Positions 17,470 to 21,728 of a stretch of DNA of 64,000 nt are shown piece after piece (position 1 is the stretch's first letter; each line of letters opens with the position of its first letter). A program made the translations under genes and the position numbers. A model generated the notes under the pieces. The model had not been told where the DNA came from. It saw nothing but the letters and a program-made list of their open reading frames with translations, and did not search any database. Source of the stretch: Alphaproteobacteria bacterium (GTDB taxonomy: Bacteria > Pseudomonadota > Alphaproteobacteria > SP197); the NCBI GenBank assembly GCA_965228895.1, contig OZ245842.1, positions 800,001 to 864,000 of the forward strand, in the 5' to 3' direction.

Positions 17470-18243
17470 TTAGGGCGTGTTCACCGTCAGGTGCGTGCCT
17501 GAATCGACAACCAGCAACTGGCCGGTGACGCCCGGCGCGCCGCCGGCAAACCAGGCGACTGAATCGGCGACATCCTCGGCGCTCACAAGATGTTTCAGCA
17601 TCGATAGCTCGCGAACCCTGCCACGGAACGTTTCATAGGCAGCCGGCTCCATACGCTGCGCCGACCAGCGGGTGTCGACGTAGCCGGGGCACACCGCGTT
17701 GACCCGAACCTCCGGCGCCAGAATGCGCGCCAACGACATGGTGAGCGTGTTGAGCGCGCCCTTCGAGGCGGCGTAGACGACCGAGCTGCCGTAGCCCGAA
17801 AAACCTGAATGGGATGAGATGTTGACGACGCTGCCGTGCGACGCGCGCAACGCCTGTTCGGCCGCGCGCGCCATCTGAAAGGCGCCCCGGACGTTGACGC
17901 TGATGACCTTCTCGAAGTCCTCGGCGGTCACTTCGTCCATCTGATCAAGCGGTACATAGCGTGTGATCCCCGCATTGTTGACGAGGGCGTCGACCCGACC
18001 CCAACGGCCAAGCGCCGCATCGACCATGGACCGGCATACGGCATCGTCGGTGACGCTGCCTTGCTGAATGAAAAAGTCGGCGCCGGCGTCGCGGCACAAC
18101 CGGGCCGTTTGCTGAGCGTCAGCTTCGCTCCTGGTGAAATTGATGACGACGTTCCATCCGTCTGAGGCCAGACGGCGTGCGCTCGCCGCGCCGATGCCGG
18201 TGGCCGAGCCGGTGACGATGGCGACCTTGCGTTGGCCTGTCAT
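17470..18243 (-). CDS. Short-chain dehydrogenase/reductase
   Basis: TGSATGIG, NNAG, YAASK. Confidence 0.92.
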   Translation of the reverse strand: MTGQRKVAIVTGSATGIGAASARRLASDGWNVVINFTRSEADAQQTARLCRDAGADFFIQQGSVTDDAVCRSMVDAALGRWGRVDALVNNAGITRYVPLDQMDEVTAEDFEKVISVNVRGAFQMARAAEQALRASHGSVVNISSHSGFSGYGSSVVYAASKGALNTLTMSLARILAPEVRVNAVCPGYVDTRWSAQRMEPAAYETFRGRVRELSMLKHLVSAEDVADSVAWFAGGAPGVTGQLLVVDSGTHLTVNTP

Positions 18244-18358
18244 GGATCCTCGTCGCGTCCGTGTCGATATCTGTCGAATGCATCAGGATGGCCCAGGCGA
18301 CGCGCTGGGTCGAGCCTGCGCGCCGGCTTTAGGGCTGGATGGGTAGGTCCTTTGGGCC

Positions 18359-18387
18359 TTGCACATTGGACCGACTGACGCCATATT
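18359..18387 (+). promoter_or_regulatory. Putative sigma70 promoter of the asd leader
   Basis: TTGCAC (18359-64), 17-nt spacer, CATATT (18382-87). Confidence 0.55.
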
Positions 18388-18429
18388 CCGCGCAGCTGAC
18401 AAGCGATTCGAGTGAGTTTGGATTCCGTG

Positions 18430-18528
18430 ATGAACGTTCGTTTCACCTTACCGGTCGATCTGGCCGCCGCCCTTGGCGGTGCCGCCATGACCAAAACCAC
18501 GACCAAAACCCCGGTAGTGAGGCGCTGA
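18430..18528 (+). CDS. Putative asd attenuator leader peptide (32 aa; a 13-aa version from ATG 18487 is also possible)
   Basis: MNVRFTLPVDLAAALGGAAMTKTTTKTPVVRR*; Met/Thr/Lys codon cluster at 18487-18510 just before the RNA hairpins. Confidence 0.75.
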   Translation: MNVRFTLPVDLAAALGGAAMTKTTTKTPVVRR

Positions 18529-18586
18529 CCACCGGCCCGGTCAGCGTGCCATAAGATGAACCAAGGGGCCGGAAGGCCCCTTTTTT
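18523..18586 (+). terminator. Attenuator: pause hairpin, antiterminator and Rho-independent terminator upstream of asd
   Basis: CGCTGACC(18523-30)/GGTCAGCG(18539-46); CCGGCCC(18532-38)/GGGCCGG(18566-72); AAGGGGCC-GGAA-GGCCCC-TTTTTT (18563-86). Confidence 0.82.
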
Positions 18587-18644
18587 GTTGCTTTGATTGT
18601 AGGATAACCGCCCAGGCTGGCTCGGGCGGCGAAAGGAGAGGGTG

Positions 18645-19682
18645 ATGGGTTACAAAATGGCAGTTGCTGGCGCCACGGGCGCGGTCGGCAACGAAATGCT
18701 GCAGATCCTCGCCGAGCGGAACTTCCCGGTCGACGACATGGTGGCACTCGCCTCGTCCAACTCGGTTGGACGCGAAGTGTCGTTTGGCGAAGACCACACG
18801 CTGAAGGTCCAGGACCTCGCCACCTTCGACTTCAAGGGCACCGAGTTGGCGCTCTTCTCGCCGGGCGCGAAGGTATCCGACGAGCACGCGCCGCGCGCCG
18901 CTGCTGCCGATTGCATCGTCATCGATAACACGTCGCGTTTTCGTTACGACGAGGATATCCCGCTCGTCGTGCCGGAAGTGAACGCCGAGGCGCTGGCCGG
19001 GTACGAGAACCGTTACATCATCTCCAACCCCAACTGCTCGACGATCCAGATGCTGGTGGCGCTCAAGCCGCTGCACGATCTGGCGACCGTCAAGCGCGTC
19101 GTCGTCGCGACCTACCAGTCGGTCGGTGGTGCCGGCAAGAAGGGCATGGACGAGCTCTACCTGCAGACCAAGAACAAGTTCTGGAACGAGACGTCGGAGC
19201 CCGACGCTTTCCAGAAGGAGATTGCGTTCAACTGCATTCCCCAGATCGACATCTTCATGGATGACGGTTCGACCAAGGAAGAATGGAAGATGGTGGTCGA
19301 GACGCAGAAGATCCTGGATCCAGCGATCAAGGTGCAGGCCACCTGCGTGCGCGTGCCTGTCTTTGTCGGCCACGCCGAGGCTGTGAACGTGGAGCTTGCT
19401 TCACCGCTGTCGGCCGACGATGCGCGTGAACAGCTCCGGGAATCCGACGGCATCGTGGTCTTGGACGAACGGGTGCCCGGCGGTTACATCACCCCGAAGG
19501 AATGCGCCGGCGAGGACGCGGTCTATGTCAGCCGTATCCGCAACGACCCGACGATCGAGAACGGGCTCTCGATGTGGGTCGTCTCGGATAATCTGCGCAA
19601 GGGCGCCGCACTTAACGCCGTGCAGATTGCCGAAGAGATGGACCGCCGGTTCCTGAAGGGCGCGTTGCCGAAGGCCAGTTGA
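18645..19682 (+). CDS. asd: Aspartate-semialdehyde dehydrogenase
   Basis: GATGAVG, IDNTSRFR, SNPNCSTIQM, CVRVPVFVGH, DNLRKGAALNAVQIAE. Confidence 0.98.
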   Translation: MGYKMAVAGATGAVGNEMLQILAERNFPVDDMVALASSNSVGREVSFGEDHTLKVQDLATFDFKGTELALFSPGAKVSDEHAPRAAAADCIVIDNTSRFRYDEDIPLVVPEVNAEALAGYENRYIISNPNCSTIQMLVALKPLHDLATVKRVVVATYQSVGGAGKKGMDELYLQTKNKFWNETSEPDAFQKEIAFNCIPQIDIFMDDGSTKEEWKMVVETQKILDPAIKVQATCVRVPVFVGHAEAVNVELASPLSADDAREQLRESDGIVVLDERVPGGYITPKECAGEDAVYVSRIRNDPTIENGLSMWVVSDNLRKGAALNAVQIAEEMDRRFLKGALPKAS

Positions 19683-19718
19683 CGACGTCGGCTGCGGACG
19701 GTTGAACGGGTGGGCGCC

Positions 19719-20120
19719 TTAGAAAGCGCCCTTCCATTGCTCCGTGTCGACGAACCAGCGCTCCTCAAAGACCTTGCCGTTGCTGAGCTTGAACAACACC
19801 GCGAGCTGGCTGCCTTCCGGCACCTTCTCGCTTGTCCATTCGATGATGGAGACAACTTCGTCGCTGTCGCCAATCTGACGGATTGAGGAAAACGCGAACC
19901 CGGGCGGCAAGGCGGCACCGATGTTCTCGAGCGCACTGCGAAACCCTGCTTTGCCTTCGATCACATCGTTTTGGCCGGGTATGACAAAAATCATGTCGTC
20001 GGTGTAGTCGGCGATCAGCGTGTCCCAATCGCCTCGTAGAACTGCTTCCCATCCCCGCTTCACGATGTCTGCATCACTTGCCCCGTGATCAACGGAATGC
20101 GACGGTTGTGCGTTGGACAT
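19719..20120 (-). CDS. NTF2/SnoaL-like small protein
   Basis: 133 aa; 'GDWDTLIADYTDD...LFKLSNGKVFEERWFVD' pattern typical of the NTF2 fold. Confidence 0.75.
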   Translation of the reverse strand: MSNAQPSHSVDHGASDADIVKRGWEAVLRGDWDTLIADYTDDMIFVIPGQNDVIEGKAGFRSALENIGAALPPGFAFSSIRQIGDSDEVVSIIEWTSEKVPEGSQLAVLFKLSNGKVFEERWFVDTEQWKGAF

Positions 20121-20291: not shown

Positions 20292-21728
20292 TTGGAAAAT
20301 CCCACGCCTCCGTATGAGCGGCTAAGCCGCAGGGAGAAGGAGATTGCGACCGCATTCTCTGGCGGGGAGAACCATCACCAGATTGCCGAACGGCTTTGCA
20401 TCGCGCCTTCCACGGTTCGCACGCATCTGGCGTCGATCTACCGAAAGCTTGAGGTCTCGTCGAAGCTGGAGCTTCACAAATCGCTTGAAGGTGGCGGTTC
20501 GAAACGAGTCGGGTCGGATACCGCACTTCCGGTTATCTCGGACAGACCTTCGATTGCCGTTTTGCCGTTCGCCAGCATGTCAGACGATCCCGATCAGGGA
20601 TACTTTGCCGAGGGAATCGCAGAAGACATCATCACCGCGCTGTCGAGGATCAAGTGGTTCTTCGTGACCGCGAAGCTCTCAAGCTTTTCCTACGAGGGCC
20701 GTGCCGTCGACGTGAAGCAAATCGGAAGCGAGCTCGGCGTGCGCTACATCTTGGAGGGTAGCGTTCGCAAATCCGGTCTTCGCGTCCGTGTTACCGCCCA
20801 ACTGGTCGACTCATCGAACGGTGAGCATGTCTGGGCGGAACGGTATGATCGCGAAATCAGCGACATTTTTGACATCCAAGACGAGATAACCCGCAATGTC
20901 GTCGCAAGCACGCAAACCCAAGTTGCGTTAGCCGAAGCGTCCCTGTTCGCAGACTTGGAGAAACCGTCCTTGCCCGTCTGGGCGCTGGTCAATCGATCTT
21001 GGAAGCTCATGTACGACATGACCGCTGACTCCTTGCTGGAAGGTCGGCGTTTGGCTGAAGAAGCCATTGCCATGGATCCAGGCAGTGGCCGCGCCCATCA
21101 GGTTTTGGCAGCCCACTTCTGGCACTGGTATTGGATGGGTTTTGCCGACGACCGAAGAAAGACCCTTGATGAAGGCAGGAAAGCGGCAGAGCGGGCCATT
21201 CGCCTCAACGAGTATGACGAGTATTCCCATTGGCTGCTCGGTCTGCATCAGATGACCGATCATAACTTCGATATGGCGGTGGCGGAGCTAAAGCGCGCTA
21301 TTGAGATCAACTCCAACTGCTCATTGGCCTATGGCAGCCTTGCCACGGTTCTTAACTTTGCGGGGCAACCAGAAGAGGCGATCACCAACAATTTGATTGC
21401 GGTTCGTTCCAATCCTCGCGATCCGAGCATTTTCTATCGGCATACCGGACTGGCGTTGTCGCACTTCTTGCTGAACGACTATGAGGCGGCGATCGGATGG
21501 GCTCGACAGTCGGTTCTATTCAAGCCGGACTGGTTCCAGGGGCATGTCGTACTGATTGCGGCACTCGTTGAATCCAACCAGATCGGGGCCGCTAAGATAG
21601 CCTTTAGCGATTACTTGAGACATTTCCCCAAAGCATCGCGCGACGAGGTCTTGGGCCTGCCTTTTAAAGACCCCGAACCCGGTCTGCGGTTGGTCAAGTC
21701 TCTGGAAAAGGCGGGCTTGCAAGGGTAA
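20292..21728 (+). CDS. LuxR-type HTH + TolB-like + TPR regulator
   Basis: LSRREKEI..IAERLCIAPSTVRTHLASIYRKL; RPSIAVLPF, GVRYILEGSVR, WAERYDR; C-terminal TPR-like helices; TTG start after GGGGAGGA. Confidence 0.85.
   Translation: MENPTPPYERLSRREKEIATAFSGGENHHQIAERLCIAPSTVRTHLASIYRKLEVSSKLELHKSLEGGGSKRVGSDTALPVISDRPSIAVLPFASMSDDPDQGYFAEGIAEDIITALSRIKWFFVTAKLSSFSYEGRAVDVKQIGSELGVRYILEGSVRKSGLRVRVTAQLVDSSNGEHVWAERYDREISDIFDIQDEITRNVVASTQTQVALAEASLFADLEKPSLPVWALVNRSWKLMYDMTADSLLEGRRLAEEAIAMDPGSGRAHQVLAAHFWHWYWMGFADDRRKTLDEGRKAAERAIRLNEYDEYSHWLLGLHQMTDHNFDMAVAELKRAIEINSNCSLAYGSLATVLNFAGQPEEAITNNLIAVRSNPRDPSIFYRHTGLALSHFLLNDYEAAIGWARQSVLFKPDWFQGHVVLIAALVESNQIGAAKIAFSDYLRHFPKASRDEVLGLPFKDPEPGLRLVKSLEKAGLQG

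Follow-up and report, generated by a model that had tools for sequence, protein, structure and literature searches.

The question raised by this locus is what a short open reading frame, followed at once by a hairpin and a terminator, is doing immediately upstream of asd, the gene of aspartate-semialdehyde dehydrogenase. Asd yields the last intermediate shared by the routes to lysine, threonine, methionine, isoleucine and diaminopimelate, threonine and lysine being the two branches fed by aspartate semialdehyde, and to our knowledge the control of this enzyme has been little studied in alphaproteobacteria. We have examined the gene and its upstream region within the window, that is, the whole stretch of 64,000 nucleotides of alphaproteobacterial DNA analyzed here (the features are collected in Table 1). 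The element is probably an attenuator of asd transcription, of the ribosome-mediated leader-peptide type, that senses how much charged tRNA-Thr and tRNA-Lys is available, and asd expression is most likely raised when Thr/Lys are scarce.

Table 1. Features of the asd upstream region, with positions counted from the first nucleotide of the window
Feature	Position	Strand	Details
Promoter-like element (putative, weak)	18359..18387	+	TTGCAC 18359-18364, N17, CATATT 18382-18387
In-frame alternative starts of the leader ORF	18427, 18412	+	both GTG; the ORF listing begins at GTG 18412
Leader ORF, 32 codons (translation predicted)	18430..18528	+	MNVRFTLPVDLAAALGGAAMTKTTTKTPVVRR (stop); ATG 18430, TGA 18526-18528
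Regulatory codons (putative)	18487..18510	+	ATG ACC AAA ACC ACG ACC AAA ACC (M T K T T T K T)
Stop-codon hairpin H1	18523..18546	+	CGCTGACC 18523-18530, loop ACCGGCCC, GGTCAGCG 18539-18546
Antiterminator strand in the H1 loop	18532..18538	+	CCGGCCC, complement of GGGCCGG 18566-18572
Intrinsic terminator	18563..18582, T6 18581-86	+	AAGGGGCC-GGAA-GGCCCCTT; terminator scan: 8 pairs, 6 of them G-C
Hairpin just 5' of the asd Shine-Dalgarno sequence	18608..18629	+	
asd, aspartate-semialdehyde dehydrogenase	18645..19682	+	Pfam Semialdhyde_dh 1.2e-31, Semialdhyde_dhC 1.5e-53

The leader ORF is found exactly where the first-pass annotation of this DNA had placed it, on the same strand as asd and with 116 nt between its stop and the asd start. 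It has a poor Shine-Dalgarno sequence (GGA, 7 nt 5' of the ATG), and the C-terminal end of its peptide is MTKTTTKTPVVRR. The most conspicuous component of this ORF is a run in which seven out of eight consecutive codons are for Thr or Lys, Thr alone accounting for five, in a genome where the overall codon usage is 5.4% for Thr and 2.7% for Lys; AAA is the minor Lys codon there (26% of Lys codons). A genome-wide scan for combinations of short ORFs and terminators (634 in total) gave this leader as its top match, with the strongest single-residue run (five Thr in eight codons). The structures previously described around the stop codon, namely the hairpin over the TGA, the 7-bp alternative pairing and the terminator with its T6, are likewise all at their expected positions, and the asd ATG follows 58 nt past the T tract with its own Shine-Dalgarno sequence (AAGGAG, 18633-38). 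Since CGCTGACC pairs with GGTCAGCG, the TGA lies within the 5' arm of H1, a hairpin that folds in isolation at -16.7 kcal/mol. The CCGGCCC strand in its loop sits at +4 to +10 nt past the leader stop codon, and the duplex that it can form with the 5' arm of the terminator has a predicted energy of -17.6 kcal/mol, the terminator itself (located between the ORF and asd) folding at -16.4 kcal/mol. The start of the Asd protein (ATGGGTTAC) is kept among relatives.

The region that would drive transcription of the leader is less clear-cut. Both hexamers of the promoter suggested by the first-pass annotation are present with the 17-nt spacer, and they would place the transcription start near 18394, but a sigma-70 promoter scan of 17900-19900 called no site, because TTGCAC agrees with TTGACA at only 3/6 positions. 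What speaks for a promoter is that the two hexamers are invariant in three genomes of the genus, with a spacer that varies in one of them (G001). At the other end of the leader, a hairpin ending 1-6 nt 5' of the GGAG is found in 10/10 relatives; its single-sequence z-scores (-1.9 to +0.7) do not stand out, and RNAalifold gave no consensus for it among these relatives.

Conservation of the element was assessed with a covariance model (R1), which found one copy in the genome (104.8 bits, the next match having an E of ~0.8). Within the order, strong R1 matches (E <= 6e-16) appeared in 13 of 33 genomes, in every case (13/13) directly 5' of asd, and 19 of the 33 had no R1 match at all. In nine loci examined asd begins 2-5 nt past the stop of the preceding ORF which, together with the 19 genomes without a match, indicates that the device is dispensable. 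The genus of the study genome has an opposite-strand SDR gene between leuB and asd, and the element stays with asd. The weak R1 matches (E from about 1e-3 to 0.9) comprise two sites in the own genome plus one each in two other genomes (G022:C26 and G001:C402); the latter two are ordinary terminators that follow other genes, and neither asd nor a Thr/Lys ORF lies in their vicinity.

All 13 related leaders contain a short ORF whose stop is this hairpin-embedded TGA (within GCTGACC). Their peptides diverge throughout, the Thr/Lys run being the only conserved part. It is kept in 12 leaders, with 4-6 Thr and 1-3 Lys among the last 14 codons and at least one AAA codon in each, and the remaining one (G012) has retained the hairpin and the terminator and lost the run. 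The main block, AAA-ACC-ACC-ACC, is located 16-27 nt 5' of the stop in most relatives, and in G002 and G001 an ATG is aligned with GTG 18427. At the RNA level, an alignment of 10 sequences from related genomes (A2) had 88.8% of its cells paired for H1, 96.3% for the terminator and 92.5% for both together, and 95.6% for the antiterminator, versus at most 63% when the partner was slid. Covariation is scant in these related genomes, with most pairs invariant and one compensatory pair per tested structure (for the antiterminator, GC in eight sequences and CG in two). The upstream alignment of related genomes bears out the Thr/Lys run and the stems that had been anticipated, and it lacks the Met run and the ample covariation. 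The idea that a single leader reads tRNA-Thr, tRNA-Lys and possibly tRNA-Met is sustained for the first two by the conserved run, and any role of Met would probably be weak, as judged from the leaders themselves: Met codons have no fixed position, the 13 leaders of these related genomes having 10 of them altogether within their final 14 codons.

The attenuator that we favor would operate in the following way. Transcription would begin ~35 nt 5' of the leader ORF, which is predicted to be translated. With Thr and Lys plentiful, the ribosome would reach the TGA at 18526, unwind H1 and cover the next ~10 nt, i.e., CCGGCCC; with this strand covered the terminator would fold and transcription would stop near 18586. 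Under Thr/Lys hunger the ribosome would be held at the ACC/ACG/AAA run (18490-18510) leaving CCGGCCC free, and the free strand would capture the emerging 5' arm of the terminator, allowing the RNA polymerase to continue into asd. During such a stall CCGGCCC would be in the loop of an intact H1, so the pairing would have to occur from the loop, which would give an H-type pseudoknot whose first loop is 1 nt and whose second stem has 7 bp, without a junction base. A broader version of this proposal is that the switch is not a textbook one, the whole loop of H1 (one free A plus 7 nt) pairing with the terminator 5' arm as a pseudoknot, with read-through as the default and termination brought about only by a ribosome that reaches the stop, and that numerous alphaproteobacterial families came upon this logic, or reassembled it, using unrelated sequences. 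Taken jointly, we regard these statements as a tentative possibility on which we would not insist. If true, asd would be a widespread and hitherto undescribed checkpoint that senses lysine via leader codons and not via a riboswitch. The lysine riboswitch RF00168 had no matches in the whole genome, in a search whose control detected it in four well-known genomes.

The fold expected at each ribosome position was predicted with a pseudoknot-free model in which the ribosome masks 12 nt beyond the A-site codon. In this masked folding, stalls at all seven Thr/Lys codons let H1 keep 7-8 of its 8 pairs and the antiterminator none of its seven (0/7). The antiterminator forms only with stalls at GTA, GTG or AGG (18514-18522). 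When the ribosome sits at the stop, the antiterminator strand is masked and the terminator forms. For the full transcript at equilibrium, H1 plus the terminator are always favored. Since the Thr/Lys stalls leave the antiterminator unformed in these nested folds, the link between such a stall and read-through needs a pseudoknot or kinetic effects. The trp/thr/ilv-type layout recognized by the first-pass annotation is present as far as its components go (ORF, antiterminator and terminator are conserved at asd), but it is not simply that of trp or thr, as nested folding does not deliver the antiterminator upon Thr/Lys stalls. Similarly, H1, the terminator and the antiterminator are all attainable as the alternative folds that had been put forward, but the last one only for the narrow range of stalls just mentioned.

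Leaders of comparable composition are found elsewhere in the class. ORFs with at least six Thr/Lys in the eight tail codons are present 5' of asd in 10/107 family representatives, versus 0/107 for the reverse complement; another Thr/Lys match (L085, at -308) falls in a region without a terminator and was not counted. In one family (that of G154) a Thr/Lys-rich ORF is located 93-108 nt 5' of asd in 10 of 30 loci, such ORFs being found in two genera and two of them ending in TTTTKKLGKTTR with six Thr and three Lys. The four leaders inspected in this family lack a T-tract terminator, and since their downstream folds extend to the Shine-Dalgarno sequence of asd, translation may be what they control. 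Several other lineages (G025, G059, G106, G118 and L090/L094) have Thr/Lys-rich ORFs whose sequences differ from the asd leader studied here, and in them a strand ~1-9 nt past the ORF stop is complementary to the 5' arm of a terminator-like hairpin further on. In all of these lineages the antiterminator strand would thus be shielded by a ribosome terminating at the stop.

The stalls at which the antiterminator does form in nested folds, with the A-site at 18514-18522, are those expected of a classical four-segment attenuator, in which H1 would serve solely as an anti-antiterminator or a pause hairpin, and a stall would count only if it occurred 2-4 codons before the stop. Here these pre-stop codons are Val, Val and Arg, and the Thr/Lys run would then be a relic or a mere way of slowing the ribosome. 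This geometry would work in nine of the 13 related leaders, where the codon at -12 and/or -9 nt from the stop belongs to the aspartate family (Thr, Lys, Met or Ile). However, the three genomes of the study genus (3/3) have Val-Val or Val-Gly at these positions and yet conserve the Thr/Lys run upstream, the AAA-ACC-ACC-ACC block is well away from the stop in most relatives, and the lineages without H1 also have an upstream Thr/Lys run with the antiterminator strand immediately after the stop. We consider the classical arrangement unlikely. The closed antiterminator under Thr/Lys stalls would also suit a real attenuator devoid of amino-acid-specific stalling, either a general sensor of translation-transcription coupling or an H1/loop that binds a protein or small ligand, and the stronger conservation of the H1 loop and stems than of any peptide position points the same way. 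Nevertheless, Thr/Lys runs recur 5' of asd in unrelated backgrounds (the families counted above and that of G154), which a ligand or protein sensor leaves unexplained, and none of the Rfam families attained its gathering score at the element, making this reading very improbable in our view.

Other readings detach the element from asd. It could be an independent small gene, for a small protein or for an sRNA equipped with its own terminator, lying beside asd by coincidence, or the leader RNA could also act in trans like rnTrpL of Sinorhizobium meliloti. Termination would yield a discrete RNA of ~190 nt, an attenuator-derived trans RNA and a functional leader peptide have a precedent in an alphaproteobacterium (PMC6614838, PMC7968998), and SEP5, a peptide of S. 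meliloti, was detected as a stable tagged product (PMC10117765). But the peptide is unconserved beyond the Thr/Lys run, the element is always on the same strand and directly 5' of asd, and the conserved antiterminator pairing would be superfluous for an independent gene; a trans role would supplement attenuation in cis, not supplant it. This we hold to be quite improbable. Finally, the ORF might be there by chance, beside an ordinary terminator or an insulator between divergent or neighboring genes, given that 30-codon open frames are frequent at 62% G+C and that in relatives the element is just 3' of leuB, where it could pass as the leuB terminator. The explanation is disfavored and we give it hardly any credit: in the study genus the SDR gene parts leuB from the element, which is still beside asd, the Thr/Lys enrichment far exceeds the codon frequencies, and 13/13 leaders have their stop codon at a fixed place within the hairpin. 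Attenuation by Thr and Lys codons is the reading that we retain.

We have also compared the asd leader with known regulatory RNAs. A cmscan of 17900-19000 against 4227 Rfam families (E <= 10) found no match to the known cis-regulators of this kind (amino-acid leader, lysine riboswitch, T-box or asd RNA motif). The sole plus-strand match with E < 0.01 was the Rhizobiales sRNA Atu_C8 (RF02502; 26.5 bits, 18492-18597). This identity was rejected, the score being below the gathering score of 50 and the aligned part being essentially the GC-rich terminator. A true Atu_C8 member (98.8 bits, in G154, from 151 genomes searched) is located between LysR-type and MFS transporter genes, with no asd within 1.5 kb; the two RNAs are unrelated, the match being one of terminator similarity. 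Among established attenuators, thrL of E. coli (Thr_leader in Rfam) has a run of Thr codons plus Ile codons, a terminator and an antiterminator, and provides multivalent attenuation of the aspartate-family pathway, its regulatory codons lying within segment 1. The asd leader shares with it the Thr run combined with codons for a second end product, the terminator and the antiterminator, but differs in the regulated gene, in the codon mix, where Lys replaces Ile, in sequence and in having its regulatory codons 5' of the first hairpin and not inside segment 1. As described in PMC6614838, trpL/rnTrpL of S. meliloti is likewise an alphaproteobacterial ribosome-dependent attenuator before a single biosynthetic gene, whose terminated leader is a discrete small RNA; it differs by its Trp codons, its leaderless ORF of 14 aa and its documented trans functions.

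A close published counterpart is SEP5 of S. meliloti (Hadjeras et al., 2023, Microlife, PMC10117765). According to that paper, this sORF carries six Thr and three Lys codons, clustered near its 3' end, and belongs to the 5'-UTR of a gene named "aspartate dehydrogenase"; Ribo-seq and Western blot showed its translation in S. meliloti, its conservation is confined to Sinorhizobium, and the authors suggest a possible leader peptide. Like the asd leader, SEP5 is a short ORF with Thr/Lys codons 5' of an aspartate-pathway gene, though without sequence similarity to it, and two asd-linked ORFs of the G154 family fit its description (six Thr, three Lys). Our search of the literature, whose coverage did not extend to Vitreschak et al. 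(2004, FEMS Microbiol Lett 234:357), found no description of an asd attenuator beyond this remark. In PMC4117421 and PMC13285730 "asd" stands for the anti-Shine-Dalgarno sequence and not for the gene, and in PMC12612679 asd appears only as a target of SgrS. The first-pass annotation knew of no described asd attenuator in Alphaproteobacteria, and this claim to novelty is weakened, since a translated Thr/Lys sORF with a suggested leader role was reported in S. meliloti in 2023 (PMC10117765).

What we describe is a well-known type of control at a gene where it had barely been described before and, given the classical mechanism class and the one published hint, the gain is in breadth and detail and not in a new principle. 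The data suggest one leader reading both the Thr and the Lys branches at the branch-point enzyme, with comparable Thr/Lys leaders scattered over about one tenth of the sampled alphaproteobacterial families. The well-conserved version found in this order would qualify as a clean new RNA family (Rfam 15 has none), and the asd leader would be a compact model for testing the presentation of an antiterminator from a hairpin loop.

Regarding the remaining candidates of the genome-wide scan for leaders, one was rejected as the 3' end of a longer gene (2150560) and two for lack of a convincing downstream gene (3055898 and 1495445). The sole other candidate kept was metG, which is preceded in this genome by a Met-rich leader and a terminator, and on this basis the organism seems to employ leader-peptide attenuation at other genes too.

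Every element that the first-pass annotation had listed 5' of asd (the promoter-like hexamers, the short leader ORF, the hairpin over its stop codon, the alternative pairing, the terminator and the spacing to asd) was found where it had been placed. The product of asd carries both semialdehyde dehydrogenase domains (Pfam). The gene order is leuC, leuD and leuB (+), a short-chain dehydrogenase (SDR) gene (-), the leader and asd (+) and a SnoaL-like gene (-). Since opposite-strand genes flank them, the leader and asd are a separate unit.

Features of the asd leader and of the neighboring SDR gene in the window
Feature	Position	Strand	Basis or remark
SDR gene	17470-18243	-	between leuB and asd leader
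Promoter-like TTGCAC / N17 / CATATT	18359-64 / 17 nt / 18382-87	+	sequence
Leader ORF MNVRFTLPVDLAAALGGAAMTKTTTKTPVVRR	ATG 18430 to TGA 18526-28	+	ORF listing
Hairpin H1, CGCTGACC / GGTCAGCG	18523-30 / 18539-46	+	stop codon inside 5' arm
Antiterminator strand CCGGCCC	18532-38	+	complement of GGGCCGG 18566-72
Terminator and T6	18563-82	+	terminator scan
asd	ATG 18645	+	58 nt 3' of T tract

A further hairpin (18608-18629) stops 5 nt 5' of the asd Shine-Dalgarno core. All ten relatives have a hairpin at the matching position with a different sequence; its stability does not exceed that of shuffled sequence, and RNAalifold gave no consensus.

We scanned the entire 5.5-Mb genome for perfect-stem terminators with a short ORF 5' of them. 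The run of the asd leader was the strongest among the 634 combinations, with Thr at five of eight codons and Thr or Lys at seven of eight (codon shares in the genome are 5.4% for Thr and 2.7% for Lys). AAA, the less used of the two Lys codons in this genome (26%), encodes both Lys residues of the run.

Asd is present in all 41 related genomes, and in the 29 upstream regions that were readable a short ORF with a terminal Thr/Lys run appeared in eight, with a degenerate ninth in genome G012. A covariance model (R1) derived from an alignment of ten leaders (A2) found a single copy in the window's own genome (104.8 bits, the next match having E ~0.8). The order consists of one family, and 13 of its 33 genomes gave strong R1 matches (E <= 6e-16). 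Counted by genus, own genome included, these are 3/3 in that of the window (g1), 3/3 in g2, 7/23 in g4, 0/3 in g3 and 0/1 in g5; g4 has one further, eighth match that is weak. All 13 strong matches lie directly 5' of asd. Two weak matches that we inspected were ordinary terminators at other sites. The leader directly follows leuB, within ~20 nt, in g2 and g4, and in all three genomes of g1 the opposite-strand SDR gene parts it from leuB yet leaves it beside asd; the element thus travels with asd and is linked to this gene rather than to leuB. The attenuator can be absent, because 19 of the 33 lack any R1 match and in nine loci (L010-L016, L018, L019) the asd ATG comes 2-5 nt past the stop of an upstream ORF, whose C-terminus is LeuB-like by eye, with no leader. 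Attenuator-bearing and attenuator-less genomes alternate within the single genus g4.

Aligning the asd upstream regions, as had been proposed in search of a conserved codon run and covarying stems, bore out the conservation of both the Thr/Lys run and the stems but gave scarcely any covariation. The pairs of hairpin and terminator are kept in 92.5% of A2 cells (at most 60.6% with the partner slid) and those of the antiterminator in 95.6% (at most 63.2%). Covariation in these conserved stems is slight: one pair is changed on both sides in hairpin plus terminator and one in the antiterminator (columns 53-97, G-C in eight and C-G in two, those of the window's genus), most A2 pairs being invariant and the genomes related. 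The peptides of the 13 leaders diverge at almost all positions (tails such as AAMTKTTTKTPVVRR, AATKTTTVTRGG, AKKTTTRTTAG, CTKTTTATIKAG, AMKTTTTLMKAG and AAKTTTTKIIAG), and all 13 ORFs end with a TGA within GCTGACC. Regarding the Met/Thr/Lys content claimed for the leader peptide, Thr and Lys hold up, 12 of the 13 leaders having four to six Thr and one to three Lys among their final 14 codons, but Met is weak: these codons pooled over all 13 leaders contain ten Met and four Ile, neither at a fixed position, a suggestive but weak hint at other aspartate-family end products. In G012 (L009 / L045 / L136) the run has decayed to TTAALAATAG and the stop-codon hairpin, antiterminator strand and terminator are all retained (80.2 bits); this leader may be an attenuator stripped of its amino-acid input.

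A way to relate the codons to the alternative folds is to place a ribosome on the leader. Its footprint was represented by bases barred from pairing, reaching from 15 nt 5' to 12 nt 3' of the first A-site base, a reach known from the toeprint and footprint literature. In masked folding, a ribosome at the TGA covers 18532-38, leaving the antiterminator 0/7 pairs and the terminator 8/8. A stall at GTA, GTG or AGG (18514-22) melts H1 and gives 6-7 of the 7 antiterminator pairs, on a transcript ending before the terminator 3' arm. A stall at any of the seven Thr/Lys codons (18490-18510) keeps 7-8 of the 8 H1 pairs intact, with 0/7 for the antiterminator, and therefore a simple trp-like scheme fails to connect the Thr/Lys codons of the window with the antiterminator. 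The trp-like layout proposed by the first-pass annotation stands as regards the terminator and the alternative pairing, but Thr/Lys stalls do not open the antiterminator in this pseudoknot-free folding. The energies are -16.7 kcal/mol for H1, -16.4 for the terminator, -15.0 for the antiterminator alone and -17.6 for the two-strand duplex.

There are two possible ways out. H1 could stay folded while its loop pairs with the emerging terminator arm in an H-type pseudoknot; the loop consists of one free A and the seven complementary bases, which directly adjoin the 3' arm, a geometry that looks feasible and would be compatible with lineages without H1. Alternatively, the effective codons would be those two to four positions ahead of the stop. 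Nine of the 13 related leaders have a Thr, Lys, Met or Ile codon at -12, at -9 or at both (nt from the stop); the window's genus has Val-Val or Val-Gly there.

Beyond the order, we drew one genome from every one of 150 further alphaproteobacterial families, and 133 of the 151 genomes of this family sample yielded asd. The 450 nt 5' of asd were examined in 107 genomes (100 plus 7 from earlier loci, G063 left out) for an upstream ORF with at least six Thr/Lys in eight inside its last 18 codons. Such ORFs, of 14-86 codons counted from the first ATG, occur in 10/107 (G000, the window's own genome, and G005, G025, G059, G087, G106, G112, G118, G150 and G173) versus 0/107 when these regions were read as their reverse complement. 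Those of G059 and G173 extend beyond the stretch examined, and that of G118 resembles a small lipoprotein and may have another identity. In G025, G059, G106, G118 and two MAG loci (L090, L094) the complement of the 5' arm of a terminator-like hairpin lies ~1-9 nt past the stop; the window obeys the same rule, with its antiterminator strand at +4 to +10 nt. A terminator is present in G173; no clear T-tract terminator precedes asd in G087, G112 or G150. In the family of genome G154 a Thr/Lys ORF lies 93-108 nt 5' of asd in 10 of 30 loci (L254-L256, L259, L260, L263, L264, L267-L269), namely 5/5 of genus g170 and 5/5 of g155, and ends in AFATPKTTTKTTG or, in the g155 type with six Thr and three Lys, in TTTTKKLGKTTR. 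In the four leaders of this family that we inspected the T tract is absent and the folds extend to the asd Shine-Dalgarno. Those of g155 have a CCTCC soon after the stop, able to pair with the asd Shine-Dalgarno region. The leaders of this family may represent a translational form of Thr/Lys control.

No Rfam family reached threshold on the element; the sole match, Atu_C8 (26.5 bits versus 50), reflects terminator similarity. The lysine riboswitch gave no match in the own genome, and the control search was positive in E. coli, B. subtilis, T. maritima and L. lactis. The main survey of proteobacterial attenuators is that of Vitreschak et al. (2004). A full-text literature search for an asd attenuator turned up only one paper of relevance, that of Hadjeras et al. 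(2023; PMC10117765). According to this paper, translation of SEP5, an S. meliloti sORF with six Thr and three Lys codons in the 5'-UTR of an 'aspartate dehydrogenase' gene, was shown by Ribo-seq and Western blot; the authors call it 'possibly a leader peptide' and report its conservation as Sinorhizobium only. Because the g155 ORFs 5' of asd (six Thr, three Lys) fit this description, we infer that SEP5 is probably an asd leader of the G154-family type. The mechanism class is classical and, as to the novelty suggested by the first-pass annotation, the same device has already been hinted at in print for one rhizobium. The interpretation of the first-pass annotation appears right in substance, the sequence comparisons arguing for a conserved, asd-linked leader-peptide attenuator built on Thr and Lys codons. 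What is new is a well-conserved terminator-type family in the order, the breadth of Thr/Lys leaders over alphaproteobacterial families, a rule by which a ribosome terminating at the leader stop would cover the antiterminator strand, and a leader geometry that, in the folding model, would point to a loop-presented antiterminator.

Elsewhere in the window, the ORF at 20292-21728 (+), which has no relation to the asd leader, carries a LuxR/GerE helix-turn-helix at its N-terminus and TPR repeats at its C-terminus. Outside the window, the same genome holds a second candidate leader-peptide attenuator (L120, G000:C1 ~3195007-3195150, +), with an ORF MVNLTNLSAAMMKPHMMHGAASFVMS in which Met takes four of eight codons, a GC-rich hairpin and T5 ~35 nt past the ORF, and a methionyl-tRNA synthetase gene ~100 nt beyond the hairpin (Pfam tRNA-synt_1g, 2.3e-94).
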